Source: an uncultured Candidatus Saccharibacteria bacterium (GTDB lineage: Bacteria > Patescibacteriota > Minisyncoccia > Minisyncoccales > Staskawiczbacteraceae). Taken from it: a stretch of 64,000 bases of DNA. Position 1 is the first letter of the stretch, and every line of letters starts with the position of its first letter. This document shows positions 15,647-47,596 of the stretch, one piece after another. The DNA is taken from positions 219,824-283,823 of the forward strand of contig CAYZNK010000001.1 in assembly GCA_964479955.1 (NCBI GenBank), given 5' to 3'. The notes beneath the pieces were generated by a model. The model saw only the letters and a list, made by a program, of their open reading frames with translations. It was not told the DNA's origin and did not search any database. A program made the translations under genes and the position numbers.

Positions 15647-15649
15647 GGA

Positions 15650-26898: not shown

Positions 26899-27498
26899 CT
26901 ACTGCCAGTTGATATCTTCTTTTTTGCCTGCAAATTCCAGCCATTGTCCGCCGTCTTTTGGAATGCAGTATTTTCTCCCAGACTTTTCAACTATTCTCAT
27001 GCCCCTATAATAAGGTTTTAATTTTTTAGAAGTATCCCTTTCTTTTATCTCCTTATTATTTAACTCCTTACTATTGGAAGTCCTTGTGGTGAACTTCATA
27101 AGTTTATCCTGTAAACTAGTGAAGTCTATGTGGCAAACTTCACTATACTCTTTCAAAGTTTCAGGATTTATCGGCTTCCAATGTTTTTTATGATGTAGTA
27201 CATATCTGTTGTTGGCTGTTTTGCCTACTCTTTGTTTCCGGATTATTCCCCAGAATTCCAGCCTTTTTATCCCGTCTATTATTTTACTTCGCGATATCGC
27301 CAATTCCTCCCGGATAAAATTTATAGACGGCCAGCTCTTTTGCAGTTTGTTGGCATGCCTGCAGAGGGAGTTATAAACTCCTACGGCGTAGATTTCTAGG
27401 AATCTTGCATAGCCGTTAAGAAATTTGTCATCGGTTATATACTGTTCTTTTTGCCGAAGATCTCTTATTTCAAATTTTTCCTCGTTATTTTCCATCAT
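26899..27498 (-). CDS. Winged-helix replication-initiator-like (DnaD/phage Rep N-terminal-like) protein
   Basis: WPSINFIREELAISRSKIIDGIKRLEFWGIIRKQR is typical of MGE wHTH replication or regulatory proteins. Confidence 0.45.
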   Translation of the reverse strand: MMENNEEKFEIRDLRQKEQYITDDKFLNGYARFLEIYAVGVYNSLCRHANKLQKSWPSINFIREELAISRSKIIDGIKRLEFWGIIRKQRVGKTANNRYVLHHKKHWKPINPETLKEYSEVCHIDFTSLQDKLMKFTTRTSNSKELNNKEIKERDTSKKLKPYYRGMRIVEKSGRKYCIPKDGGQWLEFAGKKEDINWQ

Positions 27499-27760
27499 GT
27501 TTGTGCAACTCTTGCCACCGCTTTTGATTGCGGGTATTTAGCATTTTTAAATTTGATACAGGAACAACTTTGAGAACACGGTGGGGAGCTAGTGTTCTTA
27601 TGCCTTTTTGGTTTTTGCCTTTTTTATTTAAGCAGAATGGACAGCGATTTTCGTCTGGCAGTTTATTTCTAAGTTCTGCCTCTTTGTCTAACGGACAAAC
27701 ATTTATTGGGCAGAAATTAAATCGCGGGCAATCTTCAAAATAGTTTATTGTTTGGTTCAT
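27485..27760 (-). CDS. Small Cys-rich hypothetical protein
   Basis: CPRFNFCPINVCP...CPFC. Overlaps both neighbouring genes within the operon. Confidence 0.4.
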   Translation of the reverse strand: MNQTINYFEDCPRFNFCPINVCPLDKEAELRNKLPDENRCPFCLNKKGKNQKGIRTLAPHRVLKVVPVSNLKMLNTRNQKRWQELHKHDGK

Positions 27761-27954
27761 AAATTTATGTCGCCAGTTTCTTGGCGGCGTTTTTGTAAAT
27801 TATTATATTCTTGTTCAGTCATTGGTTTGTAAACCAGCTCAACCATGCGAAGTAGGGAAGCTGCTTTTTCAAAAGCTTCCTCCCGGCTAATCTCCTTACC
27901 GAAGCGATTCTTGTAAATTTCCATAAAAGATATGATTTGTTTATCGGTCAGCAT
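27757..27954 (-). CDS. Small hypothetical protein (65 aa)
   Basis: ORF with 4-nt and 14-nt overlaps with its neighbours. Confidence 0.4.
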   Translation of the reverse strand: MLTDKQIISFMEIYKNRFGKEISREEAFEKAASLLRMVELVYKPMTEQEYNNLQKRRQETGDINL

Positions 27955-28198
27955 GATAAAGCCGCGTTTTTAAAGTTCTTAGACAATCTAAAAAAGCAAC
28001 GGGTTCCACAAGGAGCTCGCGCCTCCAATATCTTTGAATTAAATCGTCTAAGTTTTTATCGCGTTGGAATAAAAAGGTTGCTTTATTATTTTCCCAATTT
28101 ATTGCTTCAATTGGCCGGTTAAAAAAGCATAAGCAATTCGCCAAATTCAAATCAGATGTTTCAAAAAAGTCATTTTCTTTTAGTAATCCTGATTTCAT
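27941..28198 (-). CDS. Small MGE-associated protein (DUF5659-like by recollection)
   Basis: ETSDLNLANCLCFFNRPIEAINWENNKATFLFQRD...LKTRLY matches the pattern I recall for this small phage/plasmid family. Confidence 0.4.
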   Translation of the reverse strand: MKSGLLKENDFFETSDLNLANCLCFFNRPIEAINWENNKATFLFQRDKNLDDLIQRYWRRELLVEPVAFLDCLRTLKTRLYHADR

Positions 28199-28289
28199 AT
28201 TTTTAGAAATTTTAATAATAAAAAAACTATATTCTGGTTTGAATATAGTCCTTTTTTCGGAACGTGTTTGAATTTTAGGCTAAATTAGG

Positions 28290-29081
28290 CTATTCTGGGT
28301 GATTTTTTATGTGGGCCATTTCTAATTGCTTCATGAGTAGAGCAATATTTATTCCTTTGTTTTGCAAATATTCTTTCGTGATTTTATCTCCGGCATATGT
28401 AATCATTCCTTTTTTGCTCCTTTTCGGAAAAAATGCTTTAAGAATTTCTTTTGTGAACCCAAGCTGATAAAGTATATCGGCGATACTTCCGCCGCCAATT
28501 TCTTCTTTAAGAAAATTTGGCAAATCACTTTTCTTTATTGGAGTGTTTGCATTTTTACTTCTTATAAATTCTAGGGTTTCAAAATTAGTTCCCACTGCAT
28601 GCGGTTTTGAAAGGAGGAAATTATTTATCCAGATTTCCCTGTCTTTGACTGTTAGCTGAAAGGTTTCCGGCAATTCAGTTTTGACATTTTTAGTTGCAGC
28701 TATTTTTTCTATTTCTTGTCTTAATTCTTTGATCTCATTAATCAATTTATCTATTTTTTCTGTTTCTGTTTTGGCAACAACTATCTGCTCTGGATTGCCT
28801 GATTTTTGTATTTCAATGTTTTTTTGACGGACATCTCCCAAAGAAAATTCAATTTTTTGAAGCGTTGGGATAATTGTTTTTAAAGTTTCGCCCGCAGGAA
28901 TTAGATAAGTCTTAGCTGAATCGTTCAAATCTTCGGCGTATTTTTTCATCCTTTGCATCTGCGGTTCTAAACTAGCAAGACTGTCAACCAAAAAATCTAA
29001 ATTTGGGATTTGGCAAAAACGGCCATAGAGTTTCAAGCTCTTATCAATATCTTCCAAAATACGCTTATGTATTTCCAGCAT
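28290..29081 (-). CDS. Hypothetical coiled-coil protein (263 aa)
   Basis: AGAGGA SD-like sequence upstream. No family recognised. Confidence 0.45.
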   Translation of the reverse strand: MLEIHKRILEDIDKSLKLYGRFCQIPNLDFLVDSLASLEPQMQRMKKYAEDLNDSAKTYLIPAGETLKTIIPTLQKIEFSLGDVRQKNIEIQKSGNPEQIVVAKTETEKIDKLINEIKELRQEIEKIAATKNVKTELPETFQLTVKDREIWINNFLLSKPHAVGTNFETLEFIRSKNANTPIKKSDLPNFLKEEIGGGSIADILYQLGFTKEILKAFFPKRSKKGMITYAGDKITKEYLQNKGINIALLMKQLEMAHIKNHPE

Positions 29082-29237
29082 AATTTTAGTAATCCTCTAT
29101 AGTAATTTTCGCTTTTATACTGCCACTTTTCAGATATTTTTTCAAGGAAAAGGTGATTAATCATAAAAACCCCTAAAAGTACCCCTTTTTACACCCTTTG
29201 GCAATCTATTTGGAGATTTTTAGGATCTCCCAAAAAA

Positions 29238-29350
29238 CCCGCTGTTTTGCCCTGTTTTGCCGAACAAAAGTTAGTCGTTTTGGTCGTTTATCAAGCTAAA
29301 AGACGAGCAAACGCCCGTCTTTCTCCCAAACCCCTCACAAAACCCCTAAG
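29238..29350. repeat. Non-coding module, copy A (iteron-like TAGTCGTT/TGGTCGTT, GCCGAACAAAAG, GCTGTTTTGCC x2, CTCACAAAACCCC)
   Basis: Shares several blocks with 38666-38850: ttagtcgttttggtcgttt vs ttagtcgttattggtcgttt, gccgaacaaaag, (c)gctgtttt repeats, and cacaaaac(a)ccc. Confidence 0.7.
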
Positions 29351-29364
29351 GATTGCTCAAAACC

Positions 29365-29901
29365 CTATAGTCTTTCATCTATTAGATCCCATTTATTCAG
29401 ATATTTAGAAATATCCCAACCATTAAATCCTTTCCCCGGAGGAATCGCTACTGTACGAACATTGCTATCGTTATGTATTTGCCCTTTTTTGCCGAGTGCT
29501 TTCATCCACATGGAATGGGCTTCCTTAACATTTTTAGACAACTCAGAGGATGGGATAATATAGTATTCAAAATTTTGAGTCGAATCCATTATCGGGATAC
29601 CGCCTAAGATCCAAAAGAAATTATTTCCGTAATCTATCTCGGCTTTTCTGCCAACGCTGCAAGTTTTATCTCCTGGTCTAAAAGTTTTTACTTGAATGTG
29701 TACAAATTTCGTACCGCCTTTATTACTACATAAAATATCAGTATTAGGACAATTTCCCATAGTTACAACTGCTACCAAACCACGACGACATAATTCCCCT
29801 GCAATAAAAAATTGACTGGCACTTCCACGATGAGTTTTGTCTGTTTTCTCGATTGTATGTTCCTCCATGTCTTTATTTTTGTTTTTATTTTTTACCAACA
29901 A
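29365..29901 (-). CDS. PD-(D/E)xK-like nuclease-fold protein (178 aa)
   Basis: GSASQFFIAGELCRRGLVAVVTMGNCPNTDILCSNKGGTKFVHIQVKT fits an E...D...(Q/E)xK restriction-endonuclease-like core (Hjc/YraN-like topology). Confidence 0.45.
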   Translation of the reverse strand: MLVKNKNKNKDMEEHTIEKTDKTHRGSASQFFIAGELCRRGLVAVVTMGNCPNTDILCSNKGGTKFVHIQVKTFRPGDKTCSVGRKAEIDYGNNFFWILGGIPIMDSTQNFEYYIIPSSELSKNVKEAHSMWMKALGKKGQIHNDSNVRTVAIPPGKGFNGWDISKYLNKWDLIDERL

Positions 29902-30869
29902 ATGTTAACGTTTGTTTTGATTTGTTTCTTTAAATAATCTTTAACATCGTATATTCCTCCAACCTGATCGATTAAGCCGTTATCTTTTGCCATTTGACCA
30001 AGCATTGATGAACCGTCAGCCAACTCTGTTACCTTCTTTATGTCCATATGTCTATTTTCGGAAACATATTTGATAAAATTATTGTAGAGGACTTTTACAT
30101 CTCTCATAAAAAGATCTCCCTCTTCTTGAGTTAGTATTTTATCTGGATTTCCGGCATCCTTAAATTTACCTTCGCTTAATTCGTAAAATGTAAGCCCGTC
30201 AGTTGTATTTTTATCAGAGTTTCCAACATAAGACATCGTAACTCCAATACTCCCGACATCTGAATTTGCGGAAGCAATAATATATTTAGCACCGGAGGCG
30301 GCAAGATAAGCAGCTGAATTTCCTCTTTCCCTGATTAAGGCAACTGTTGGCTTTTTTAAGTGTTTTAAAGCTTCAGCAATCTCCCATCCTCCAACTGGAG
30401 AACCACCTGACGAATCGACTTGAAGCAATATAGCTTTTATTGAATTATTCTTGTTTGCTTTCTCTATCGCGGCAGTTATATCTTCCGCAGAAGCAACATC
30501 TTTGCTCGATTGACCGCTACCATCACTTGCTGCATTTTTGTATGTGTAAAGCCCGCCATAGAGTTTAATTCCTTGTACATTGCAATCACCATAAGGCAGA
30601 ACGGGTATTTTTGAATCCGTCAAAATCAATAGCTGCATTAAAAATCCTGTAAGCAAAAATGCTAATCCCAGCAAAGAAATCTTTTTATCCTTCAAAAAGC
30701 CCGCCCTCGTATAAAAATGCCTCTGATCATTACTGACCTCTTTATTCTTATCTAAATCTATTAGTAAATCATCCTCCAACGCTCGTCTTGTTTTTAAAAA
30801 TGGAAAAGCCAGTATCATCGTTCCAGTAATACTGAATAACAAACCTAAAATTTGAATAAAAAATATCAT
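29892..30869 (-). CDS. Two-TM N-terminal domain fused to an SppA/S49 serine peptidase domain
   Basis: VDSSGGSPVGG, KPTVALIRERGNSAAYLAASGAKYIIASANSDVGSIGV (S49 signature context). Two N-terminal hydrophobic helices. Confidence 0.75.
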   Translation of the reverse strand: MIFFIQILGLLFSITGTMILAFPFLKTRRALEDDLLIDLDKNKEVSNDQRHFYTRAGFLKDKKISLLGLAFLLTGFLMQLLILTDSKIPVLPYGDCNVQGIKLYGGLYTYKNAASDGSGQSSKDVASAEDITAAIEKANKNNSIKAILLQVDSSGGSPVGGWEIAEALKHLKKPTVALIRERGNSAAYLAASGAKYIIASANSDVGSIGVTMSYVGNSDKNTTDGLTFYELSEGKFKDAGNPDKILTQEEGDLFMRDVKVLYNNFIKYVSENRHMDIKKVTELADGSSMLGQMAKDNGLIDQVGGIYDVKDYLKKQIKTNVNICW

Positions 30870-30872
30870 ATT

Positions 30873-31184
30873 TTAATATTTAAAATCCTCTTCCTCAAAT
30901 TTATCTCTTATTATTTGTTTTCTGAGTCTTAAAACTTCGAATTCTCTTTTGAGTTGATTGTTTTTATCTCTTTCCATCATAAGCATACCCTCCAATGCTT
31001 CCGTGGAATATTTCACGTCCTCACGGACTTCCTCGGTAATATCCTTCAGCTTAAAAAATAGTTTTTCTACTTTAATTTTAGCAGCCAAAAGTTCAATTTC
31101 TTCATCAGACTTTTTAATTTCAGCTTCCTTTTCTTTTAGCCGACTAATTGTATCGTCCAATAGTTGTTGTTTAATGTTTTCCAT
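30873..31184 (-). CDS. Small coiled-coil protein (103 aa)
   Basis: Highly charged heptad-like sequence. 3-nt and 5-nt gaps to its neighbours. Confidence 0.45.
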   Translation of the reverse strand: MENIKQQLLDDTISRLKEKEAEIKKSDEEIELLAAKIKVEKLFFKLKDITEEVREDVKYSTEALEGMLMMERDKNNQLKREFEVLRLRKQIIRDKFEEEDFKY

Positions 31185-31189
31185 ATTTT

Positions 31190-32272
31190 TTAATACTTTT
31201 CTAAAATTTTTATATAATTTGTTAACCTGTTCAAAAGTTCATCGTACGTAACAAAATTTATATTATTTAAGGAAAGGCACAAGAGTCGGAAGTCATCCCT
31301 CTCTTTTTGAGAATTAAGATTATTTGATCGACCAGCAAGAATTATTCCCCGAGGCCGCAAAACTTTTAAATTAATTTTAAATTTATCAAGTATATAGCCC
31401 CTCACAGCTGGTCCATTGTTGGTAATGTTTTCGATATAGTTCTCTACTTGAATTATGGCCCTTGAAATTTCTGAATCCCAAAAAAAGTTACCTCTTCCAG
31501 CATCCTCCTTAAGTAGCGGCGTAGTAGGTTTTTTAATCTCTAAAATATCGAGATAATTATCATGTGTAACTATGGAAAAATCAGGAAATTTTGTATTGCC
31601 AATACCAATGTTCATTTTTTCTATTGCGGATATATATCCCTGCTGAATTAAAAGTATGTTTTTCTTTATATATTTTTGCCAATACGTTTCTCCATACGTT
31701 CCTCCAATAGCCTTTTCTAAATCAGAAGATAATTCCTTTAATGATTTTATTTGCGCTTTGGCTTTTAAAAAATTTACAGCGCTCAGAGATTCCGAAGCGA
31801 TAAATTCGGGCAGAAACTTGTTTATTGAATCTCTATCTTCTGGTGAAAGTCGTGGTAAAATTTTCTGACCTAACAGATTGGAAATTGTGCCGGGTACGTA
31901 AACTGGAGTTTCTTCTTTTTCGAAAAAAGAAGGATAAACAAGCGCAAAATAATTTAAAATTATGTCGTTTTTTATATCTCTTGTTCTTTCCCAAAGCTCC
32001 CCATTAATCATTTTAAGCGTCTTTTGAGAAGTCCTTATGCGATGTATATTCCTTTCTAGTATTATAGAATCTGTTTCTTCAGTTATTATCCATTGAAACT
32101 TTTTGAATTTTCTTTTTAAAACTTCTAATATATGCTTACCGAAATTTATTCTTCCGTCCGTAGAAAGGCCTTTTGGCCTTTTGCCCTCATAATAAATCTT
32201 CGTGCCTTTCAGCGCATCACCATAACTCCTATTTTTTACAATTACATATTTCTTTTTTGCTATTCTCGCCAT
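31190..32272 (-). CDS. Shedu-like (DUF4263-type) PD-(D/E)xK nuclease
   Basis: C-terminal FPDFSIVTHDNYLDILEIKKP (D...ExK), SRAIIQVENY, RGIILAGRS and NINFVTYDELLNRL match the DUF4263/SduA pattern as I recall it. Confidence 0.6.
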   Translation of the reverse strand: MARIAKKKYVIVKNRSYGDALKGTKIYYEGKRPKGLSTDGRINFGKHILEVLKRKFKKFQWIITEETDSIILERNIHRIRTSQKTLKMINGELWERTRDIKNDIILNYFALVYPSFFEKEETPVYVPGTISNLLGQKILPRLSPEDRDSINKFLPEFIASESLSAVNFLKAKAQIKSLKELSSDLEKAIGGTYGETYWQKYIKKNILLIQQGYISAIEKMNIGIGNTKFPDFSIVTHDNYLDILEIKKPTTPLLKEDAGRGNFFWDSEISRAIIQVENYIENITNNGPAVRGYILDKFKINLKVLRPRGIILAGRSNNLNSQKERDDFRLLCLSLNNINFVTYDELLNRLTNYIKILEKY

Positions 32273-32283
32273 AATTTTTACTA

Positions 32284-32460
32284 CTAAAATTTTTCAACCT
32301 CTTTTTCAGCATTAGAACAGGCCGGGTAATTCCGACAAACAAGATTTTCAGTTGCTTTTTTTGCCGGCTCTCCTTCTCTTTTTAATCGTGCATATTGAGA
32401 AGGTTTCAGCGGCTCTCCGCATGTTTCACATTTTTCAATATCTTTATCTAAGGTTGCCAT
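32284..32460 (-). CDS. Zinc-ribbon mini-protein (58 aa; absent from the supplied ORF track, presumably because it is under 60 aa)
   Basis: Hand translation: MATLDKDIEKCETCGEPLKPSQYARLKREGEPAKKATENLVCRNYPACSNAEKEVEKF. Cys pairs CxxC and C-x5-C. Begins 1 nt after the methyltransferase stop. Confidence 0.45.
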   Translation of the reverse strand: MATLDKDIEKCETCGEPLKPSQYARLKREGEPAKKATENLVCRNYPACSNAEKEVEKF

Positions 32461-32461
32461 T

Positions 32462-34405
32462 TTATCTTTCGATTAATTTTTTTGTAGAATTTTCTACGAT
32501 TTCCACTTCTTTATCTGTAAGTCCATACAATTTATAAACTATTTGATCTATTTCATTCTCATACTCTTTAACTTTTTCCTGCTTTACAGGATTGTCCAAG
32601 TAATCTTGCGTTTTCGTAATCGCTAAAATTTTATCAACAAGTTCAATAAATGGTTTTTGTTTTGCTTCTGAAGCTTCTTTGATTGGTAATTTTTTAATAT
32701 GAGCTGGATAAATATCCAAACCAAAACTAAAAAACTTTTGGAATAACCACTTAAAAAGATTCGAGTTTATAAGTGATAATAAAAATAATAGATCATATTG
32801 CTTAGATAACTTGATTCTACCACCATTAATAATACTTTTAAGCTGGCTATACTTGTCTAGTGGAAGTGAGTAATATGGGATGATTACATACACTGTATTA
32901 TCGGCGTAAAGATTATCCTGATCGTAAAGAAAAGACAACCCATCCCTTCCAATTATTCTCTTGCCAATCAATTTGTGATTTTCAAACAACTCCTGATATC
33001 TTGGCTCCCTATGGACATCTGGCGTGAATTTCAAAAATAATGTTTTATTTACTCGCCATCTTGAAATATATTTTCCTTCTATGTATGGTTTTAAATTATT
33101 TGCCTTCTGTTTATAGATAAATTCATCTTTTTTAACGCCCTTTTCAGCGTTATGAAGAACCGCTCCATATATAACAAAGCATATCTCTGAAAGATTTATT
33201 GTGTCTTTATAAATTTTTCTTTGTAGATCTGATTCTTTTTTCCCGATATCCAATCTAAAATTCATATCCGGCAATTCCTTAAAAAAATTTTGCTTGATCG
33301 TTGAATACCTGCTCTCAGTATTTATAATCATCCCTAGTTCAGAATTATCGCCGTTTTTTAAATCTGAGTCATACAGATTTAGTAACTTCACTTCGTCATT
33401 GGACGTATTCTCGTTATTATCAACGATAGTTATTGCTGTATCTACGGTTGCTTCAAAAACCTTTAAATTAAAATTGATAATTCTTAGTAAATGTTTATGT
33501 AGTAAAATTTCTCTTATTTTAGATCCATATTTTTGGGAAAAATATTTATTGCTAGTAATAAAGCAAAGATTACCGCCCTTCTTTAGCAATTGCAGAGCTT
33601 TTTCGATAAAAATAATATAAATATCGTAATGAGCAGTTGGTGAGTGAAATTCTTTTTCATAAAAGGGTTTTAACTCTCCGGTCATGTTTTTTGATGACAA
33701 ATAAGGCGGATTCGCGATCACAATTCCGAACCCTTCTTTTATTCCAAACATCCATTCAGGATCAAACCAAGTTGATGCCTTGTGACCGAACGGATCCCAT
33801 GTCATCAAACTTCCTGTCAAATTTGCCATTCCTCCTCTCTTTTTTTCTATAACCTTCTCAAACATCCTTTTTTGCGCCTGGACAAACTGCAATTTTAATT
33901 TCTCTCTTTCTACTCCTGAAGCATTAAAAAACATCTCACGAAGTTCTTTAAGTTCACCTATTCCACTCTCGTCTTCAAATAAACCCTGCTGATTACTCGT
34001 CGACGGCTTTGGGAGACCAATTAAGCTATTTGCGGTTACAAATTTAAAGTCCAGATTTGGGAGTGGCTCTATCCCTCTGTTTTCCAAGTCATCATGGACG
34101 CTTTCATCAACGATTAAAGTTAAAAAACACCTCAACCTTGATATTTCTGTTGCGATTGGTTGAATGTCAACGCCATAAATATTTTTTCTTACAACTCCCA
34201 ATTTGCGAATATAATCAAAATTCTCGTTCTCGAATTCTCTTTTAATCACCCTTTTCATCTCAGGAGAAACGTTTTGGATTTGCTTTTGAAACCAAATCCT
34301 TCCATCAGCATCCACTTGCTGTAAAATGAAAACTATTTTCTGCAGCGCTCCAATTGGAAAAGCGCCCGAACCGCAGGCTGGGTCCAATATCTTCACACTC
34401 TCCAA
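32462..34405 (-). CDS. Eco57I/TaqI-like gamma-class N6-adenine DNA methyltransferase with a TaqI-like C-terminal specificity domain; N-terminally short (starts at motif I, TTG start only)
   Basis: Motif I ILDPACGSGAF, NIYGVDIQPIATEISRLRCFL, LPNLDFKFVTANSL, and motif IV FGIVIANPPYL. Confidence 0.85.
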   Translation of the reverse strand: MESVKILDPACGSGAFPIGALQKIVFILQQVDADGRIWFQKQIQNVSPEMKRVIKREFENENFDYIRKLGVVRKNIYGVDIQPIATEISRLRCFLTLIVDESVHDDLENRGIEPLPNLDFKFVTANSLIGLPKPSTSNQQGLFEDESGIGELKELREMFFNASGVEREKLKLQFVQAQKRMFEKVIEKKRGGMANLTGSLMTWDPFGHKASTWFDPEWMFGIKEGFGIVIANPPYLSSKNMTGELKPFYEKEFHSPTAHYDIYIIFIEKALQLLKKGGNLCFITSNKYFSQKYGSKIREILLHKHLLRIINFNLKVFEATVDTAITIVDNNENTSNDEVKLLNLYDSDLKNGDNSELGMIINTESRYSTIKQNFFKELPDMNFRLDIGKKESDLQRKIYKDTINLSEICFVIYGAVLHNAEKGVKKDEFIYKQKANNLKPYIEGKYISRWRVNKTLFLKFTPDVHREPRYQELFENHKLIGKRIIGRDGLSFLYDQDNLYADNTVYVIIPYYSLPLDKYSQLKSIINGGRIKLSKQYDLLFLLSLINSNLFKWLFQKFFSFGLDIYPAHIKKLPIKEASEAKQKPFIELVDKILAITKTQDYLDNPVKQEKVKEYENEIDQIVYKLYGLTDKEVEIVENSTKKLIER

Positions 34406-34797
34406 TGCATCGATAATTTTATTTTTGTATCTTCACTATAAGTATCTAGTTTTTTTTGCAGGGTTATAAATTCCTTTTCAATTTTAACAGGATCAATCGG
34501 TGTAATTTTTGCTTTTGTAATTAAAACAGCCACGGGATTAATATCCACGGCTATTGACGGTCGGCCCATTAATTTTGACTCGACAATTGTTGTTCCGCAG
34601 CCTCCGAACGGGTCAACTATAAAATCTCCCTCTCTCGTATATTTTTCGGCTAATCGAGAAACAATTTGAGGTATAAATTTCGCGGGATAGCGATGATATC
34701 CATGGGTAACATAGGCGGTGTCCTTTCTGGTTTTTTCGGAGAATGACCACGTCTGGTCGACTTTTGTGTTTGCAAATAATGTTTTTGTTGGGCTCAT
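34393..34797 (-). CDS. N-terminal fragment of a second DNA methyltransferase (motif X-like plus motif I only)
   Basis: HGYHRYPAKFIPQIV...DFIVDPFGGCGTTIVESKLMGRPSIAVDINPVAVLITKAK. No (D/N/S)PPY motif before the stop. 13-nt out-of-frame overlap with the next methyltransferase ORF. Confidence 0.55.
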   Translation of the reverse strand: MSPTKTLFANTKVDQTWSFSEKTRKDTAYVTHGYHRYPAKFIPQIVSRLAEKYTREGDFIVDPFGGCGTTIVESKLMGRPSIAVDINPVAVLITKAKITPIDPVKIEKEFITLQKKLDTYSEDTKIKLSMHWRV

Positions 34798-34855
34798 AAC
34801 TTTATTAACTTATTTTGCCTTTTTTTGGATAAAAATGCAACCTTATTTATATCTA

Positions 34856-34884
34856 TTGACTTTGGTAAACACGGGTGCTACACT
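34856..34884 (+). promoter_or_regulatory. Putative sigma-70 promoter of lexA (TTGACT-17-TACACT); would give a leaderless or near-leaderless mRNA
   Basis: The -10 element ends 9 nt before the ATG at 34894. No SD sequence is visible. Confidence 0.4.
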
Positions 34885-34893
34885 TAATATAAC

Positions 34894-35532
34894 ATGGAAA
34901 ACAAAAACAACCAACAAGAGTTATCCACAAACGAAAGGAAGGCGTTGCGCATTATACGCAATTGGTTTTTGCATAAAGGCAGAAACCCTTCTATTAGAGA
35001 ATTGACCAAAGAAATGGGTTTTGGCTCAACCAGGTCTTCTCTTTTATTGGTTAACAGGCTTATAGACAAAAAGATTCTTCTCCGAAAAGATGACGGGGGT
35101 TTAAGAATTTTAAGTAATTTTGGAGAGCACAGGTTTGCTGCCAAAACTGTTGATGTGCCTTTAGTCGGAGTCGTTTCTTGTGGCGCACCCATTTTTGCAG
35201 AAGAGAACATAGAAGCCCTTTATCCGGTTTCGACGACATTGGCTCACCCCGGCTCTCGTTATTTCCTTCTTCGTGCCACAGGAGACTCAATGAATAAAGC
35301 TGGAATAAATGATGGCGATTTAGTGCTGGTAAGGCAACAAGCCACGGCCGATGCGGGCCAGAAGGTAGTTGCGCTGATTGACGACGAAGCCACAGTAAAA
35401 ATTATTCGCCTTACTCCCGACGCTGTAATATTGGAGCCAAGATCAAGCAATAAAAACCACAAACCAATTATCCTTTCCAGAGATTTTCAAATTCAGGGAG
35501 TTGTAATCGCAACTGTCCCGATTAAACATTAA
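34894..35532 (+). CDS. lexA: LexA-family repressor (wHTH plus S24 autopeptidase)
   Basis: N-terminal LexA DNA-binding-like PSIRELTKEMGFGSTRSSLLLVNRLIDKKIL. Cleavage-site region VVSCGAP (Cys-Gly, as in UmuD). Catalytic GDSM and the Lys in EATVKII. Confidence 0.85.
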   Translation: MENKNNQQELSTNERKALRIIRNWFLHKGRNPSIRELTKEMGFGSTRSSLLLVNRLIDKKILLRKDDGGLRILSNFGEHRFAAKTVDVPLVGVVSCGAPIFAEENIEALYPVSTTLAHPGSRYFLLRATGDSMNKAGINDGDLVLVRQQATADAGQKVVALIDDEATVKIIRLTPDAVILEPRSSNKNHKPIILSRDFQIQGVVIATVPIKH

Positions 35533-35602
35533 TTAGGCAAATAAAATTACTATAATTATATCATTTAAATCAAGGAATTGAGCTGGGCATTTCCAAGTTT
35601 GA

Positions 35603-35845
35603 ATGAAAATTACAATGAAAAGAGATATCCATGTAGTTCCTTACAATGGAGATTGGGCTGTTAAAAAAGAAGGCGTAAAGCAGCCGGTGTCAGTGCATCA
35701 CAAAAAAGCCAATGCCGAAGTTAAAGCTATCCAACTTGGCAAACAAACTAAAGTCGAAGTCGTTTATCATGGCAAAGACGGCAAGATTCAGGATTCTGAT
35801 AGTTATGGCAAGGATCCGCATCCGCCAAAAGATAAAAAGTTTTAA
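35603..35845 (+). CDS. DUF2188-family small protein
   Basis: HVVPYNGDWAVKKEG...HGKDGKIQDSDSYGKDPHPPKDKK matches the DUF2188 pattern. Confidence 0.6.
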   Translation: MKITMKRDIHVVPYNGDWAVKKEGVKQPVSVHHKKANAEVKAIQLGKQTKVEVVYHGKDGKIQDSDSYGKDPHPPKDKKF

Positions 35846-35847
35846 TT

Positions 35848-37389
35848 ATGAGGATTAAAGATTTCTTTAGAAAGATATTTTTTTATTTTTCAAAGCTGAT
35901 AAGAAGAAATAAATTCCCAGTTCTTGATAAATACACAAAAGAATATATCACTTATTTTAATCACCTTTTTGCTAGAGCATCTAACGCTAATGGTTTTGAT
36001 TTTCTTTGTACTATTCTGAGGGTAGAGGGTATAACAAGCGGTCATTGGGATGCTTTTGTAGAGGCCGAAGAAGCACTAATGGATTTTAGCAAAGTCCTTA
36101 GGAAAATTTCCAGGAAAAAACATTCAAAAAGAGCTTTAAGGCTAGCGTTATTTTTATATTGTCATTCCACAGAAATGTCAGCTCCGTATGAAATTATTGC
36201 CAACCTGTTAAGTTGTTGTCAGAGTAAGTCCTACAGGATGTATCCCTTTAGTGAATTGGTCAAAGTAATACAGAAAGAAGGGACGTTTCCTGAAAGGAAA
36301 TTACCAAGCCCGGTTAAAAAAGTTAAATATATCAAGCAACTTGCTGATAATTGTGGCGAGTCAAGGATTGTGGAAATTATTGAGAGTTTTTTCCATCCGG
36401 AATTGAGAAACGCTTTTTATCATTCAGATTATGCAATATCGGAAGATGAATTCAGAATTATACAAGGTAGGAAAATAGGCGATGAAGTAATCTCGTTAGA
36501 AAAATTATCTGAAATTCTAACTAAATGCTTTGCATTTTATTCAGCGTTTTTTATTGCTTACAACAGAACGAAAAAGGACTTAGCTCTTGAAAAAAAATTC
36601 CACCGTTGGCCAAATTATGAAGTTTTGGAAATTTTGTCTGATAAGGATGGTTTAACGGGATTCAAAGTCCATTTCCCAAATAATACCAGCGCTTTTTTTG
36701 AAAGGAAAAAATATAAAGGCACTATGGGGATGAATCTAGGTCCAGAGAATGAAGGAATTAGTTTATTTATAGGAGACATAGAATCTTATAAAAAAGCAGA
36801 AGACTGGTTTGTAAATGGGAAACCGTTTGATGAATTTGGGACTAGATATAATAAATATGGATATTGGAAACCCATTATATTTAGAGGCAATAGCGACAGA
36901 ATCCAAAGTAAGGCAGTCGATATGACAGAGGATAAAATTGTTCAAGGATGCCTTTTTTATATTTTTTCAACTGGACACAAATCCATTGAGTTTACAATTA
37001 AAAGTAAAGAAAAATTATTTGGAAGAGATGAATATTCAAGACCTCTATTTGGGAAAAACAAAAATTTCGTTATCAAAAATTTAGGTATAAATAGTAATGG
37101 GATTTACTTGTATGACGGCTCTGTTTATTTAGATTTAGTCGATGTTAAATCTGTTAAAGGTGGGATCAAAAAAATAAATAGTTGCATTGATAACTTCAAA
37201 AAAATTGATCCACATCTTGTGAGTTGTCTTAAATACCAACTTTATCACTCTGCTGCACCTCAAAAGAATAGCAATGGAACTTTTTCTATTGTGCTCAGTA
37301 TGGATAGCCCTCGAGGAACCCTTGTTGCCTCCGATTTAGCAATATTTCCGAAACAAGATTGGAAGATAAAAGAAGAATGGATTTATTAA
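35848..37389 (+). CDS. Hypothetical 513-aa protein: all-alpha N-terminal half with an RNxxxH (HEPN-like) motif, and an unknown beta-rich C-terminal half
   Basis: ELRNAFYHSDY at residues 185-195 (motif nt 36406-36423) fits the HEPN Rx4-6H signature. 2-nt gap after the DUF2188 gene. Confidence 0.45.
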   Translation: MRIKDFFRKIFFYFSKLIRRNKFPVLDKYTKEYITYFNHLFARASNANGFDFLCTILRVEGITSGHWDAFVEAEEALMDFSKVLRKISRKKHSKRALRLALFLYCHSTEMSAPYEIIANLLSCCQSKSYRMYPFSELVKVIQKEGTFPERKLPSPVKKVKYIKQLADNCGESRIVEIIESFFHPELRNAFYHSDYAISEDEFRIIQGRKIGDEVISLEKLSEILTKCFAFYSAFFIAYNRTKKDLALEKKFHRWPNYEVLEILSDKDGLTGFKVHFPNNTSAFFERKKYKGTMGMNLGPENEGISLFIGDIESYKKAEDWFVNGKPFDEFGTRYNKYGYWKPIIFRGNSDRIQSKAVDMTEDKIVQGCLFYIFSTGHKSIEFTIKSKEKLFGRDEYSRPLFGKNKNFVIKNLGINSNGIYLYDGSVYLDLVDVKSVKGGIKKINSCIDNFKKIDPHLVSCLKYQLYHSAAPQKNSNGTFSIVLSMDSPRGTLVASDLAIFPKQDWKIKEEWIY

Positions 37390-37425
37390 AATTGTTTAAT
37401 TCTTGATTGGGCTTAAAACAAATTT

Positions 37426-38610
37426 ATGATACATAAAAAGTTAGAAGATATTCTAATCGGAGATATAAATTATCTTGTTGAGAATAATATTCAAGAAAGA
37501 AAAACCCTTGAGTATAAGTCAGTGCTACCCAGTAATTCTGATGGGGATAAAAAAGAGTTCTTAGCTGATATATCATCTCTTGCCAACACAGAGGGTGGAG
37601 ATTTAATTTACGGGATTAAGGAAGTTGCCGGAATTCTGCAAAAGGATATTGGATTTATAACTCAAAACATAGATGCAGATATAGCCCGGCTGCATAATTT
37701 AATTAGGGACGGAATATCTCCTAGGATAATAGTAGAAATAAAAACTCTTGATTGCGTCGATGGGAGAAAAATTCTTATTTTGAGAACCAAGGCCAGTGTT
37801 GAATTTCCTCACAGAGTTATTCTTGGTGCCCACGACAAATTTTATAGGCGAAATACAAATGGCAAATATGCAATGGATGTCGGAGAATTAAGGGGGGCGT
37901 TTAATAGATCAGGAGAATTAGCCGAAAGGATCAAAAGTTTTAGGAGTCAAAGAGTTTTTGATATAAAATCTGGAGAAACACCAAAACAGTTAAATGATGC
38001 TTCGTCTTTTTTTGCGATACATATTATTCCGATGTCTGCATTTAGTACTTCATTTAGTATTGGTTCGGAGAAACTACTTTCATTGAGGAACGCACAGCAC
38101 GCTAATTCTTTTTGCCCTTTATATGCAAGCGGATGGAGCTATAGGATAAATCTTGATGGAGTCGTAGCTTACTCTCATAGCGGAGAAACTATTAGAAATT
38201 ATACTCAACTTTACCGAGACGGGAGAATTGAGGCAATAGAAACAACGATTTTAAATAAAGGGGACGATCAAGAAAAAATGTTTTTGCCGATGGCTGCGCT
38301 TGAAAATATGATTATGCAATATACTGGAAAAATGCTAGGTCTTTTATCCGGATTTGAATTTCAACCCCCATTTTATATTTATTTATCTTTTATTGGCGTA
38401 AAGGGATTCACCGTCCTCGAACCGCCATCTCGGATTTTAGATCAAGAACCAATTACGCAAGATGATCTGTTTCTCCCAGAAATTATTATTGAGAGTTTCT
38501 CAGATAATTTACACCACAAATTTAGACCAATATTTGATATGATTTGGAACGCAGCGGGTATAAGCAGGTCGTTAGATTTTGATGAAGAAGGAAATTTTGT
38601 TCCAGTTTAG
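37426..38610 (+). CDS. Schlafen/AlbA_2-domain protein with an unknown C-terminal domain
   Basis: ERKTLEYKS...KKEFLADISSLANTEGGDLIYGIKE is the AlbA_2 (Schlafen-type divergent AAA/DNA-binding) signature. Confidence 0.6.
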   Translation: MIHKKLEDILIGDINYLVENNIQERKTLEYKSVLPSNSDGDKKEFLADISSLANTEGGDLIYGIKEVAGILQKDIGFITQNIDADIARLHNLIRDGISPRIIVEIKTLDCVDGRKILILRTKASVEFPHRVILGAHDKFYRRNTNGKYAMDVGELRGAFNRSGELAERIKSFRSQRVFDIKSGETPKQLNDASSFFAIHIIPMSAFSTSFSIGSEKLLSLRNAQHANSFCPLYASGWSYRINLDGVVAYSHSGETIRNYTQLYRDGRIEAIETTILNKGDDQEKMFLPMAALENMIMQYTGKMLGLLSGFEFQPPFYIYLSFIGVKGFTVLEPPSRILDQEPITQDDLFLPEIIIESFSDNLHHKFRPIFDMIWNAAGISRSLDFDEEGNFVPV

Positions 38611-38665
38611 GTTTTTCAAATAAGATTTCTTGTAATGTATGCATTACAAGAGCCTAAAAGGCGCC

Positions 38666-38850
38666 TCTCTCCCTTCACAAAACACCCACATTCTCTTGTA
38701 TTATACTTGCGCTAAAAGTTAGTCGTTATTGGTCGTTTGCCGAACAAAAGCTTTTGCAGCTCTTCAGCAGCTTTTACTGCAAACGTCAGCCGTTAAATCA
38801 CCGTTTTAAAACGGTGATTTCGCTGTTTTTCCGCTGTTTTAACAGCGGCG
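38666..38850. repeat. Non-coding module, copy B (homologous to 29238-29350), plus a perfect 26-nt palindrome
   Basis: ctctcccttcacaaaacaccc, gctaaaagttagtcgttattggtcgtttgccgaacaaaag, palindrome aaatcaccgttttaaaacggtgattt (38795-38820), and cgctgtttttccgctgttttaacagcgg. Confidence 0.7.
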
Positions 38851-39047
38851 GTCCATTCTCATTTAACTGTTAATCGACTGTTTTATCAGTCTAATTTTAA
38901 TTGTTGGGTTAATACTGCTTTTCCTGCATCGAATGGCTTTACTACCATATCCGCGTTTGTGCCTTCGGCGGTCAGGTTGGGGATTGAAATATACTCTTTT
39001 TGCCCTTGAATTATAGTCTTAACCTGCCACACTACGTTGCGCATTTT

Positions 39048-39088
39048 AAACGCCTCATGCTGTCCGCCGGCTGGCGGATGAGGCGTTT
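39048..39088 (+). repeat. Composite hairpin AAACGCCTCAT...ATGAGGCGTTT enclosing the TCCGCCGGCTGGCGGATG core (left flank of the PurH-like gene)
   Basis: Outer 11-bp stem and inner ccgcc/ggcgg stem, with T-rich sequence downstream. Same stem family as 40894-40924 and 47557-47596. Confidence 0.7.
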
Positions 39089-39209
39089 GACTTTTTCTAT
39101 TTTTTACGTTAATTTTGACTATCGTGTTTGTTTGCTTAAAAGAGTGCAAACTCTTTGGCAACCAAGCGGTTCGTTGACATTTTGTTCAATTAGAGAAAGA
39201 GAGATAGTC

Positions 39210-40817
39210 ATGAGCCAGCCAGATAAGTGGGCATTGATTTCTGTTTGCAACAAAACGGGTATTTGCGAATTTGCGCAAGAGCTTGTTGGTTTGGGGTGGA
39301 AAATTATGGCTTCGGGAGGCACGGCAAAAGCGTTGACCGAAGCTGAAATCCACGTGAAAGATGTTGCCGAACTCGTTGGCGGCGATGCGATTCTTAAGCA
39401 CCGTGTTGTCACGCTTTCACGCGAACTTCACGCTGGACTTCTCGCTGACAAGAAAGATCCCGAACAGGTCGCTGAAATGGAAAAACTCGGCTTGCCAATC
39501 ATCGACATGGTTGTTTGTGACTTCTATCCGTTGCGCGATGCAATCGCCAAACCCGGAGCCACCGTTGATTCGGTGGTGGAATTGACTGACATCGGTGGAC
39601 CCACCATGGTTCGTTCGGCGGCCAAAGGTGGCAGGATTGTGGTTTGCCGTTTTGAGGATCGCCAGCGCCTTTTAACCGCACTACAATTGGGCCACATTTC
39701 TCCATCGGTGTTGGAAGAGTTGCGCGCTCGTGCCGAGTTTGAAGTTGCCCGCTATTGCATGGATTCTGCGAGATTTCATAGTGCTGGCGGATTTGAGGGA
39801 TTTTTTGGCGAGTTGACAGTTAATCTGCCAAAAGGCGAGAACGGATATCAAACTCCGGCTGCGCTATACAAGGACCCGGATGTTGCCAATCCCTTTGGAT
39901 TAGACAAGTACCTTGTTCTTGATGGCGTGCCATTGAGTTACAACAACTACACAGATATCGACCGGTTGTATCAGACCATGTTGCACATCCTTGCTGCATG
40001 GTCGCTGAATTTTCGTTGTGCTCCATATATTGCCGTAGGCGTTAAGCACGGAAACGCTTGCGCTGCCGCTGTTGGCACAGATGTTTGTGAGGTTGTTAGG
40101 AAAGCCGCAATCGGAGACAACCGGGCAATGTTTGGCGGCCTTATGATGTGTAATTTTCCGCTTGATGGAGAATTGGCAAAGACCATAGTTACATCTGGCA
40201 TGAATGGCAGGACACAAAAGTTTGATAGCGTCATCGCTACTGGTTTTAACCAGGATGCCATGAGATTTTTCCAGCGTAAGGGTGGCCGATGCAGAATTGT
40301 TCGCGCGCCGTTTGGACTGGGAAAAGGTCTGGGAATCGCCAACAAGCTGTTCCGCCAAGTGGAAGGCGGATTCCTGGTGCAACCCGGCTATGGTTTTGTG
40401 CCAGATTTCAGCAAGATGCAAGTTTGCGGAGTCCCTGGCAGGGATTTCACAAAGGATTTGGCTTTGGCTATTGCTGTTGGAAGTACATCCAACAGCAATA
40501 CAATTACCATTGCCAACAACGGCATGCTTTTGGGCAACGGCGTTGGCCAGCATGACCGCGTTGGAGCAGCCGAACTGGCAATCAAACGCGCCCGCGACGC
40601 CGGACACGACAACGAACTTGAGGGGGCTTCCGCTTACTCGGATTCCTTTTTCCCGTATCCTGATGCGCCAAAAGTTCTGATTGACGCAGGCATCCAGGCT
40701 ATATTCAGCACTTCGGGCAGCATCAATGACAAACTGACGCATGATCTTTGCAGGGAACGAGGCGTCATTTTGTACCAAATGCCGGACAGCGAAGCGCGCG
40801 GATTTTTCCGCCACTAA
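39210..40817 (+). CDS. Divergent PurH-like protein (MGS-like/IMP cyclohydrolase plus AICAR transformylase domains), visibly GC-rich
   Basis: ALISVCNKTGICEFAQ, ASGGTAKAL, DFYPL, TDIGGPTMVRSAAKG, GENGYQ, SYNNYTDIDR, GVKHGNACAAAV, MFGGLMMCNF, GGFLVQ, GVGQHDRV, YSDSFFPYPD, and C-terminal RGFFRH. These align in order with PurH motifs, but many near-invariant residues differ. The ATG at 39210 is preferred (AG-rich RBS); the track ORF start at 39000 runs through the hairpin. Confidence 0.75.
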   Translation: MSQPDKWALISVCNKTGICEFAQELVGLGWKIMASGGTAKALTEAEIHVKDVAELVGGDAILKHRVVTLSRELHAGLLADKKDPEQVAEMEKLGLPIIDMVVCDFYPLRDAIAKPGATVDSVVELTDIGGPTMVRSAAKGGRIVVCRFEDRQRLLTALQLGHISPSVLEELRARAEFEVARYCMDSARFHSAGGFEGFFGELTVNLPKGENGYQTPAALYKDPDVANPFGLDKYLVLDGVPLSYNNYTDIDRLYQTMLHILAAWSLNFRCAPYIAVGVKHGNACAAAVGTDVCEVVRKAAIGDNRAMFGGLMMCNFPLDGELAKTIVTSGMNGRTQKFDSVIATGFNQDAMRFFQRKGGRCRIVRAPFGLGKGLGIANKLFRQVEGGFLVQPGYGFVPDFSKMQVCGVPGRDFTKDLALAIAVGSTSNSNTITIANNGMLLGNGVGQHDRVGAAELAIKRARDAGHDNELEGASAYSDSFFPYPDAPKVLIDAGIQAIFSTSGSINDKLTHDLCRERGVILYQMPDSEARGFFRH

Positions 40818-40893
40818 TTCTCATCGCAGAATTTGATTTCTATGGCGTTGACCTTTGGTTAGCGCCTTTTTTATTTCTAGACTTGTATATTTT

Positions 40894-40924
40894 AAACGCC
40901 TCACACTACCAGCATGAGGCGTTT
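40894..40924 (+). repeat. Hairpin AAACGCCTCA...TGAGGCGTTT (right flank of the PurH-like gene)
   Basis: Shares ttttaaacgcctca and atgaggcgtttga with the left-flank hairpin. Confidence 0.7.
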
Positions 40925-40994
40925 GATTTGCTTTTAATTTGGGAAGGATTTTGGTAGGATATAAAATATATCTATTGTTAAATTACATAAACTT

Positions 40995-41738
40995 ATGGAA
41001 AAGGAAAATGTTAAAAAAATTGTAAAAGACGCTTATAAAAAAATTGCAGAGAGCAGTTCTTCTTGCTGTTGCAGTTGCAATGGCGCAAAAAATATTTCAA
41101 AGAGTATTGGATATACAGACGAAGAACTAAAAATTGTGGGTGAGGCTAATCTTGGTTTGGGGTGCGGAAACCCTTTAGCTTTTGGAAAGATAAAGGAGGG
41201 AGATATTGTTTTGGATTTAGGGTCTGGGGCTGGGATAGACGCAATTTTAGCTGCTAAAAAAGTTGGACCAAAGGGAAAAGTTATTGGTGTTGATATGACA
41301 GAAGAAATGATAGAAAAAGCAAAAGAAAATGCCAAAAAGCAGGGCATAGAAAATGCTGAATTTTTGCTGGGAGAAATAGAAAACTTGCCTTTGCCGGATA
41401 ATTTTGTTGACACAATAATAACAAATTGCGTTATTAATCTTACGCCCGACAAAGCAAAGACATTTAGTGAAGCATACAGGGTTTTAAAGCCGGGTGGCAA
41501 AATTTATTTGTCTGACATTGTTTTATTGGAGGAATTAACAAAAGAGCAGAGAAATAACAAAGAGCTGATTTCCGGCTGTGTTGCGGGGGCTTTGTTGAGA
41601 GACGACTATTTAAACAAAATAAAAACTGCGGGATTTGATGTTAAGGTTTTATATGAAAACACCGGCATAAGCAAACAACAGTATAATGGAATGCCCCTTG
41701 AGAGCATAATGGTTGAATTAACTAAAAATGGAAAATAA
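40995..41738 (+). CDS. arsM: ArsM-like SAM-dependent (arsenite) methyltransferase
   Basis: N-terminal Cys cluster SSSCCCSC, GCGNP, VLDLGSGAGIDA, VIGVDMTEEM, TNCVINL and LKPGG. Confidence 0.75.
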   Translation: MEKENVKKIVKDAYKKIAESSSSCCCSCNGAKNISKSIGYTDEELKIVGEANLGLGCGNPLAFGKIKEGDIVLDLGSGAGIDAILAAKKVGPKGKVIGVDMTEEMIEKAKENAKKQGIENAEFLLGEIENLPLPDNFVDTIITNCVINLTPDKAKTFSEAYRVLKPGGKIYLSDIVLLEELTKEQRNNKELISGCVAGALLRDDYLNKIKTAGFDVKVLYENTGISKQQYNGMPLESIMVELTKNGK

Positions 41739-47556: not shown

Positions 47557-47596
47557 AAACGCCCCACCCCTCCAGCTGGAGGGGTGGGGCGTTTTA
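47557..47596 (+). terminator. Perfect palindromic terminator AAACGCCCCACCCCTCCAGCTGGAGGGGTGGGGCGTTT
   Basis: 17-bp stem. Same AAACGCCYCA...TGRGGCGTTT ends as the hairpins flanking the PurH-like gene. Confidence 0.8.

Follow-up and report, generated by a model that had tools for sequence, protein, structure and literature searches.

An orphan, G+C-rich PurH-like gene of an unnamed PurH clade, probably acquired laterally, in the variable region of a Patescibacteria genome

Here we describe an orphan PurH-like gene, rich in G+C and lying outside any pur operon, in a 64,000-nt stretch of DNA from an uncultured bacterium labelled Candidatus Saccharibacteria and placed by GTDB in the Staskawiczbacteraceae (GenBank assembly GCA_964479955.1, contig CAYZNK010000001.1, positions 219,824 to 283,823 of the forward strand; this whole stretch is called the window below, and coordinates refer to it). 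Read from left to right, the locus comprises a tRNA-Asp gene, an island with a serine recombinase and several defence-type genes, the PurH-like gene with signals of its own, a methyltransferase gene and rsgA (Table 1). PurH converts 5-aminoimidazole-4-carboxamide ribonucleotide (AICAR, or ZMP) to formyl-AICAR (FAICAR) with 10-formyl-tetrahydrofolate and then cyclises FAICAR to inosine monophosphate (IMP). Most bacteria of the candidate phyla radiation are thought to depend on a host for nucleotides.

A PurH-like protein with altered motifs

The gene is contained in an open reading frame (ORF) listed as 39000-40817 (+), in which the ATG at 39210 opens a 535-aa protein running from MSQPDKW to RGFFRH. 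The initial annotation, made from the sequence alone, had read this protein as following PurH order from end to end, and three lines of evidence bear this out. First, the Pfam domains MGS (PF02142, residues 17-132, E 5e-14) and AICARFT_IMPCHas (PF01808, residues 144-460, E 1e-37) are both present. Second, PurH chains in the PDB align with residues 4-523, the best being Mycobacterium tuberculosis 3ZZM (E 3e-58). Third, an AlphaFold2 model made with 60 homologues as input (pLDDT, the predicted local distance difference test, 92.4; pTM, the predicted template-modelling score, 0.88) has M. tuberculosis PurH 3zzm and 4a1o as its top Foldseek matches, with template-modelling (TM) scores of 0.79-0.83. 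Canonical bacterial PurH (3ZZM/4A1O; TIGR00355 / PRK00881) has the same two-domain architecture, fold and motif order, whereas the window protein is only 30-35% identical to it and its gene is a G+C-rich orphan in a variable island. A more partial likeness is seen in ForH of formycin biosynthesis (PDB 6NKO), whose homology is to the MGS-like cyclohydrolase domain at the N-terminus (E 1e-17, target-normalised TM ~0.84); ForH, however, is a 216-aa single-domain protein of a C-nucleoside antibiotic cluster, whereas the window protein is full length and without such a cluster.

Several motifs of PurH are changed in this protein, as had been noticed from the sequence, and the changes are real, since they are reproduced in an alignment with three annotated canonical PurH proteins encoded beside purN or purD (from Bacillus thuringiensis, Tsukamurella and Qipengyuania): DGRVKTLHP has become KHRVVTLSR, LRYGENPHQ has become LPKGENGYQ, VKSNAI has become SNSNTI, AAKNH has become AAKGG and NLYPF has become DFYPL. 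The changed states are invariant or near-invariant in 60 homologues at 50-80% identity. Of 150 representatives at 50% clustering, nearly all have KHGNxCG and TSNSN, and RVVTLSR is seen more often than any other form of its motif, RVVTLHP, RVKTLHP and RVKTLSR being intermediates. The transformylase Lys-His pair is K279/H280 in VKHGNACA, aligned to canonical KHxNPCG and invariant in the 60 clade members, and the cyclohydrolase residues Y106, D127 and K139, aligned to the NLYPF, DIGGP and AAAK motifs, are invariant in the clade; canonical PurH has the same Lys-His pair and Tyr/Asp/Lys residues. The lysine of RVKTLHP is not kept. Following the numbering of the established ATIC literature, we take K279/H280 to be human K266/H267, and Y106/D127/K139 to be Tyr104/Asp125/Lys137.

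In total, 2394 homologues of the protein were found, the best at 80% identity, and when one genome per GTDB species was scanned for the signatures HRVVTLSR and SDSFFP, 511 loci were returned. These are mainly from Patescibacteria (Moran-, Pacei-, Nomura-, Nealson-, Harrison-, Doudna-, Lipton-, Vogel-, Taylor- and Staskawiczbacteria, together with metagenome-assembled genomes labelled "Saccharibacteria"), and the remainder are from Nitrospirota on Mb-scale contigs, Actinomycetota, Thermoleophilia and one Aenigmarchaeote. In a neighbour-joining tree, a long branch parts all 128 sampled clade members from the three canonical PurH proteins. The clade is the PurH of many Patescibacteria and also of some Nitrospirota, Actinomycetota and archaea of the DPANN group. 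The window gene falls within it as an intact member, and the clade itself is large, unnamed and deeply branching and made up of probably bifunctional PurH. Most NCBI sources that give names call its members "hypothetical protein", while those in JGI are called PurH, and our search of the literature on PurH in the candidate phyla radiation or Patescibacteria found essentially nothing relevant on the clade.

Moreover, the gene is under purifying selection, with a ratio of nonsynonymous to synonymous substitution (dN/dS) of 0.11-0.13 against its three nearest homologues (dS being saturated), and its product differs at only 2 of the 167 clade columns conserved at 90% or more (G285A and Q448H), the median member differing at 4. 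Decay of an orphan gene, considered as a candidate explanation, is ruled out by this column conservation together with dN/dS, and judged by its sequence the protein is neither decaying nor diverging privately.

Genomic company of the clade

To place the clade in its genomic setting, all ORFs of the best 80 GTDB clade loci were clustered. At least one of PurB, PurC, PurE, PurM and a PurCE fusion is present in 22 of these 80 loci (PurB in 18, PurC in 12, PurM in 11, PurE in 9 and the fusion in 6), and the clade shares with canonical PurH the company of purB, purC, purE, purM, purA and guaB. The clearest arrangement is that of locus L017 of Harrisonbacteria, which reads PyrE-PyrF-PyrD-PyrC-PyrB-(EamA)-PurH-like-PurB-GuaA-PurA-GuaB ... 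PurM-PurC-PurE. Since the PurH-like gene of L017 lies between the IMP-consuming PurA and GuaB and the AICAR-producing PurB, it is most simply an IMP-forming PurH. The initial annotation had proposed that the window gene diverged toward a non-canonical function; this is not borne out, because the substitutions are clade-wide, the clade stands in purine and pyrimidine clusters, and the private deviations and dN/dS are as low as described above.

The nearest homologues of the window gene lie in compact purine modules. In L006 (80% amino-acid and 77% nucleotide identity) the order is purH-like, purB and a purC-purE fusion; in L007 (75% identity) it is purH-like, purB and purC; and in L001/L002 (70% identity) purCE, purH-like and purB stand amid ribosomal-protein genes. 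Similar purH-purB-purCE modules, with or without purM and with PurH of the same clade, are present in L036, L053 and L072. The modules of L006, L007 and L001, whose PurH proteins are 70-80% identical to the window protein, share with the window its G+C excess, 5' region and terminator, but the window carries the purH part only. L003/L008 is reduced likewise, having an orphan PurH-like gene where L007 retains purB and purC at the same site. In addition, 6 of the 10 members of the window subclade are orphans, in settings as unrelated as an efflux operon, a reverse transcriptase gene, and a P-type ATPase gene with a component of an energy-coupling factor (ECF) transporter. These orphan copies, and L003/L008 against L007 in particular, indicate that purH alone has repeatedly been kept or transferred. 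Elsewhere in the clade, the settings that recur are those of housekeeping genes, and the PurH-like gene lies between uvrA and pilB/pilC in about 12 loci.

The PurB homologues of the L006 partner form a Patescibacteria-wide family of their own, which NCBI mostly names 'lyase family protein' or 'hypothetical protein', and the whole pur module appears to be under-annotated.

Foreign composition and lateral acquisition

The PurH-like gene has a G+C content of 0.510 and a G+C content at third codon positions (GC3) of 0.515, against about 0.36 and 0.25-0.39 in its neighbours. The 46 other window genes tabulated have GC3 of 0.23-0.44 except for one radical-SAM (S-adenosylmethionine) gene (0.62), and the ribosomal and translation genes among them show no raised GC3. 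A windowed G+C run confines the rise to about 38.9-40.8 kb. The initial annotation had pointed to this G+C-rich region and to its antisense shadow ORFs, and both are there, the longest ORF opposite the gene having 304 aa; long antisense ORFs of this kind are expected from G+C-rich coding DNA.

The surroundings of the gene differ between close relatives. The window LepA is 83-93% identical to proteins of many Candidatus Staskawiczbacteria, and two such genomes allow the locus to be compared. In L216 (LepA 93% identical), DNA identity is 84% over 17.9-23.7 kb of the window, homology stops at 25217 and a DUF4238 gene follows. In L089 (LepA 83% identical), the order is tRNA-Met, tRNA-Met, tRNA-Asp, a 133-aa ORF, Band_7 and RsgA, and the window rsgA downstream of the PurH-like cassette is syntenic with it. 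As both relatives differ from the window past tRNA-Asp, its 25.2-41.7 kb are strain-specific, and the region after tRNA-Asp is different in all three related genomes compared.

In the clade tree, the window copy groups with L006, L007, L001 and L008 and then with L010, L009, L011, L012 and L014. Of the best 80 GTDB loci, L014 alone is a clade member labelled Staskawiczbacteria, and its identity to the window protein is about 50%. In the window subclade, the gene exceeds the distant flanks of its host in G+C by +0.08 to +0.18 wherever such a flank exists (L006 has no non-pur flank); in L001, for example, the purCE-purH-purB block has a G+C content of 0.50-0.55 within a genome of 0.33-0.37. The GC3 of the window copy, 0.52, is lower than that in L006, L001 and L003 (0.61-0.63), which would fit a copy that has partly ameliorated toward the host GC3 of about 0.31. 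Together, the GC3 outlier, the absence of the region from two relatives and the G+C-rich nearest homologues favour the horizontal acquisition from higher-GC DNA that was first suggested by the sequence, and what was acquired was likely one gene of a mobile purine module. The accompanying suggestion, that an episymbiont's host was the donor, is not supported: the close relatives all lie on Patescibacteria-like contigs.

One may argue that the gene is native and vertically inherited, and that its G+C reflects a gene-specific constraint, be it the amino acids encoded or a codon bias tied to expression. In 64 clade loci, the PurH-like gene does exceed its distant flanks in G+C, by a median of 0.048, and the saturated dS to the nearest homologue means that any transfer was not very recent. 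However, GC3 depends little on the amino acids encoded, is as far from the host value as noted above and is not raised in the translation genes; the region is absent from two relatives; the Staskawiczbacteria copy is not among the nearest homologues; and many clade loci match the G+C of their own genomes, the dispersed purH-purB-purC-purM-purE clusters and the Nitrospirota copies being within 0.06. Thus, vertical descent is unlikely.

Limits of the cassette

The DNA resembles that of L006, L001 and L003 from 39087 to near 40878, so that the similarity covers only a 5' region, the gene and its terminator. The 5' region holds two leader blocks, each 87-89% identical to the DNA upstream of the L001 homologue and separated by a 36-nt insert specific to the window. 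The first (39087-39132) contains a TTGACT -35-like hexamer (TTGAC(T/A) across loci) and is a predicted promoter, although a consensus promoter scan did not call this region; the second (39169-39206) comprises the 5' untranslated region and an AGAGAG ribosome-binding site. No Rfam match at gathering threshold, and hence no riboswitch in the 5' leader, was found in the window, and a look for a ZTP or purine riboswitch over 38550-39300 gave chance-level snoRNA matches only (E up to 1). Downstream of the gene, the stem at 40844-40866 (-15.8 kcal/mol, z -5.7) is the best terminator call in the region and is kept with compensatory changes in all five loci compared (the window, L006, L003, L001 and L007).

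Upstream of the cassette, the non-coding stretch that follows the AlbA_2 gene has a 25-nt motif in common with an intergenic region of the island at 29.25 kb, which ties this stretch to the island and not to the cassette. A purCE or purB pseudogene remnant was considered for the 600-bp upstream gap and rejected, there being no blastn or tblastx similarity past the conserved 5' region, and a 52-aa antisense ORF in the gap has no Pfam match. Intergenic copies of AAAAGTTAGTCGTT(A)TTGGTCGTTT and TTTGCCGAACAAAAG are present at both 29256-29289 and 38714-38750, in an order that differs between the two sites; the island may use these as operators, or they may be repeat elements belonging to it.

Table 1. 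Features of the PurH-like cassette and its surroundings in the 64-kb window
Feature	Position	Strand	Remarks
Strain-specific variable region	25218..41727	.	From tRNA-Asp 3' end to rsgA; absent from L089 and L216
tRNA-Asp(GTC), left boundary of the variable region	25141..25219	+	L216 homology stops at its 3' end
Large serine recombinase abutting tRNA-Asp	25178..26824	-	GC3 0.44; ORF overlaps the tRNA 3' end
Non-coding stretch between the AlbA_2 gene and hairpin 1 (435 bp)	38611..39045	.	Terminator-like hairpins 38795-38820 and 38831-38851
Matching hairpin 1	39046..39090	.	Arms AAACGCCTCA / TGAGGCGTTT; stops where homology to related cassettes starts
5' region travelling with the gene	39087..39209	+	Homology to related cassettes
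PurH-like CDS, 535 aa + stop	39210..40817	+	MGS-like IMP-cyclohydrolase domain, then AICAR-transformylase domain; 'RVVTLSR / KHGNxCG / TSNSN' clade
Intrinsic terminator of the PurH-like gene	40844..40876	+	GGCGTTGACC-TTT-GGTTAGCGCC + TTTTTTATTT; stem 40844-40866 + T-run
Matching hairpin 2	40892..40926	.	Same arms, flanks ATTTTAAACGCCTCA ... ATGAGGCGTTTGAyTT; other loop
Third hairpin, terminator after the Band_7 gene	47557..47594	.	Outer stem AAACGCCCCA / TGGGGCGTTT; weakly related

Function and alternative explanations

The reading we favour, with a probability of about 0.7, is that of a laterally acquired, intact PurH of the clade that is still an AICAR-to-IMP enzyme. From the conserved active-site residues, the protein would be enzymatically active, and it probably still converts AICAR to IMP. 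As to its origin, a G+C-rich purH-purB-purCE module would move among low-GC Patescibacteria and would be the source of the window cassette, which probably arrived laterally in a Candidatus Staskawiczbacteria genome as a single-gene cassette (5' region, gene and own terminator) and was inserted at the far end of the hypervariable region that follows tRNA-Asp. The orphan PurH would then feed salvaged, imported or host-derived AICAR into IMP.

Several observations weigh against this reading. The clade departs, in sequence, from two defining marks of canonical PurH: the NCBIfam PurH equivalogs NF002049 and TIGR00355 match the window protein under their curated cut-offs (323.9 vs 402 and 268.6 vs 528), and the RVKTLHP lysine (human Lys66) is V67 in RVVTLSR. 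All 60 close clade members have valine at this position, and some deeper ones have K or A, whereas in human PurH Lys66 is a conserved residue that flips upon binding of the nucleotide xanthosine monophosphate (XMP) (PMC9525906). In addition, the R-Y of LRYGENPHQ is P-K in the window protein. The gene also lacks partners, as the initial annotation had recognised: tblastn with PurB, PurC, PurE, PurCE, PurM, PurA, GuaA and GuaB from related loci found none within the 64-kb window, and none of the top 120 PurB matches lies on the 299-kb source contig, in a test sensitive only to at least 57% identity with the L006 partner. Finally, dS to the nearest homologue is 1.25 and saturated, no donor with a matching genome-wide G+C was identified, and the G+C excess could partly reflect something besides recent transfer.

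Among other explanations, the orphan might be retained for a moonlighting, non-catalytic role, as a ribosome hibernation or dimerisation factor or as a ZMP sensor. PurH of Methanosarcina acetivorans sits in the 50S ribosome dimerisation factor MRDF and has a second, non-metabolic role there (PMC12605026). This protein (PDB 9ou7 chain DA, in a 50S dimer) is a full-length homologue of the window protein and its second-best sequence match (E 5e-54, TM 0.80). In 13 of the 80 clade loci, moreover, the PurH-like gene comes directly after rplJ-rplL on the same strand, a linkage made notable by the reported ribosome-binding role of the Methanosarcina protein, and orphan copies are kept intact in the window and in L003/L008 as against L007. 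However, the Methanosarcina protein has the canonical RVKTLHP and an archaeal partner, aEF2, and lies outside the clade; the rplJ-rplL-linked copies form one monophyletic, vertically inherited subclade that excludes the window gene; and the invariant active-site residues argue for catalysis. A second, non-biosynthetic role of the PurH-like proteins of the clade, in ribosome-linked hibernation or dimerisation or in ZMP sensing, is thus quite improbable. If true, it would explain why intact orphans are retained and traded among purine-poor episymbionts, why one subclade is fixed directly behind rplJ-rplL and why, throughout the clade, the cyclohydrolase site has another residue in place of its nucleotide-clamping lysine. 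The loci of the rplJ-rplL subclade are L033, L041, L046, L059, L060, L065, L071, L073, L074, L077, L079, L080 and L085, and the spacing from rplL to the PurH-like gene is 30-800 nt in 12 of these 13 and about 2.2 kb in L059.

It was also proposed in the initial annotation that the protein has a nucleotide-modifying or depleting role in defence, having left purine biosynthesis to become part of the adjacent island. Such a role is favoured by the location of this orphan gene, which borders an island encoding Shedu SduA, a LexA-like repressor, a Schlafen/AlbA_2 protein and a type IIG-like methyltransferase, by the change of several canonical motif residues, and by the pur module of L036, which abuts a gene of a TOTE conflict system. 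However, the protein has no PADLOC match, and its changed residues are shared throughout the clade by genes that stand in pur, pyr and gua clusters. With a 5' region and a terminator to itself, the gene forms no operon with those of the island. Other orphan copies lie in unrelated contexts, beside efflux, transporter, ribosomal or pilus genes, and searches of IMG/VR, GenBank phages and PLSDB plasmids gave no member of the clade, only canonical PurH at 30-35% identity. A defence role is therefore very improbable. In the Paceibacterota genome of L036, the TOTE conflict-system AEP (archaeo-eukaryotic primase) primase-helicase gene (14721-16883 of that locus) adjoins a G+C-rich purM-purH-purB-purCE module, which indicates that pur modules reach variable or defence regions elsewhere too.

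A distinct, unnamed PurH clade is thus widespread in bacteria of the candidate phyla radiation, within purine and pyrimidine clusters and uncalled by NCBI curated models, and "hypothetical protein" in many Patescibacteria metagenome-assembled genomes hides a probable PurH. Parts of the pur module appear to be accessory DNA of high G+C content that passes laterally between genomes and may shrink to purH alone. The capacity for late purine synthesis or AICAR salvage may therefore be patchy in Patescibacteria, a trait that can be traded. The clade also raises the question of whether a PurH without the RVKTLHP lysine still cyclises FAICAR.

Hairpins bracketing the cassette

The cassette is bracketed by two hairpins with matching arms, from which the initial annotation had concluded that the gene is bounded by them. 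The pair AAACGCCTCA...TGAGGCGTTT is exact at 39048-39088 and 40894-40924, and no such pair arose in 100 shuffles; the common arms extend outward to 15 and 16 nt, and the predicted folding energies are -27.9 kcal/mol for hairpin 1 and -17.1 kcal/mol for hairpin 2. The matching pair does bracket the cassette, but transcription of the gene would not end at the downstream hairpin: this begins 16 nt past the T-run of the cassette and lies 70 nt 5' of the ArsM-like gene, and since the gene has a terminator of its own, hairpin 2 is an extra element outside the cassette. The further claim that the same stem family forms the terminator at 47557 stands in part, with 9 of 10 positions matched per arm and one compensatory change, but the relation is weak and the stem generic.

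Indeed, the 10+10-nt palindrome is present in at least 120 unrelated metagenome contigs with G+C contents of 0.23-0.68, none homologous to the window or to PurH, and this metagenome-wide scan rules out the hairpin as a family-specific mobile element. The motif was not found in the related loci L001-L007, in the relatives L089 and L090 or in the Staskawiczbacteria clade locus L014. Flanking direct repeats exceed the background (at least 15 nt in 3 of 2000 random pairings of upstream and downstream flanks) in 2 of 77 clade loci, namely the window (15 and 16 nt) and L068 (56 nt). Since L068 alone is comparable, the idea that the clade at large carries hairpins or att-like repeats is rejected. An integron attC site was likewise rejected, as no GTTRRRY / RYYYAAC (R'/R'') cores were seen on inspection of the window sequence. 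The loops of the two hairpins differ (21 and 11 nt), which rules out a simple target-site duplication, and the hairpins may instead be copies of a host-type, terminator-like palindrome that was duplicated, or served for recombination, when the cassette was inserted.

The most improbable of the alternatives, an assembly chimera or contaminant read-through joined at these hairpins, would draw on the identical 15-16-nt arms around a compositionally foreign 1.8-kb segment and on the capacity of short repeats to seed mis-joins, but it is made unlikely by host-type DNA on both sides (as already argued initially) in one contig with the downstream rsgA syntenic with L089, by repeats far shorter than assembler k-mers, and by equivalent G+C-rich inserts that recur in independent JGI, Logan, ENA and NCBI assemblies (L001/L002, L003-L005).

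In L068, a locus of Candidatus Taylorbacteria, a near-perfect 56-nt direct repeat at 9818-9873 and 11641-11696 flanks the PurH-like gene. The repeat contains a 16-bp palindrome, CCAAGAATGTCAACGC-N3-GCGTTGACATTCTTGG, and each copy lies right after a terminator.

The variable region and neighbouring genes

The island to the left of the cassette (25141-38610), inserted at tRNA-Asp, encodes a serine recombinase, a helix-turn-helix (HTH) protein, an S49 peptidase, Shedu SduA, a type IIG-like methyltransferase, a LexA-like S24 repressor, a 513-aa protein and the Schlafen/AlbA_2 protein. The match of the type IIG-like enzyme to its models is confined to their methyltransferase/specificity part. A 134-aa N6/N4 DNA-methylase fragment at 34393-34797 (-) is about 81% identical (tblastx) to the N-terminus of a 423-aa methylase of L089, which belongs to a restriction-modification system at another site, between murJ and lepA; the fragment is probably a pseudogene remnant.

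Right of the island, the variable region holds the PurH-like cassette and a methyltransferase gene at 40995-41738 (+). The latter encodes an S-adenosylmethionine-dependent enzyme with an N-terminal Cys cluster, SSSCCCSCNG, and looks ArsM-like; its GC3 of 0.32 is host-like, it overlaps the start of rsgA by 11 nt, and it is not present at the matching site in L089.

Further from the cassette, a second outlier in G+C is the 568-aa B12-binding radical-SAM gene at 55652-57358 (+), with a G+C content of 0.53 and GC3 of 0.62, which has nusG-rplK (53.6-54.7 kb) on one side and a dCMP-deaminase gene on the other; it is likely another lateral acquisition. Downstream of lepA, on the other side, an ORF at 22564-24090 (508 aa) contains 4.4 tandem copies of a 135-nt (45-aa) Cys/Thr/Asn-rich repeat at 23092-23684, and the homologues of this protein in relatives are 874, 539, 464 and 730 aa long.

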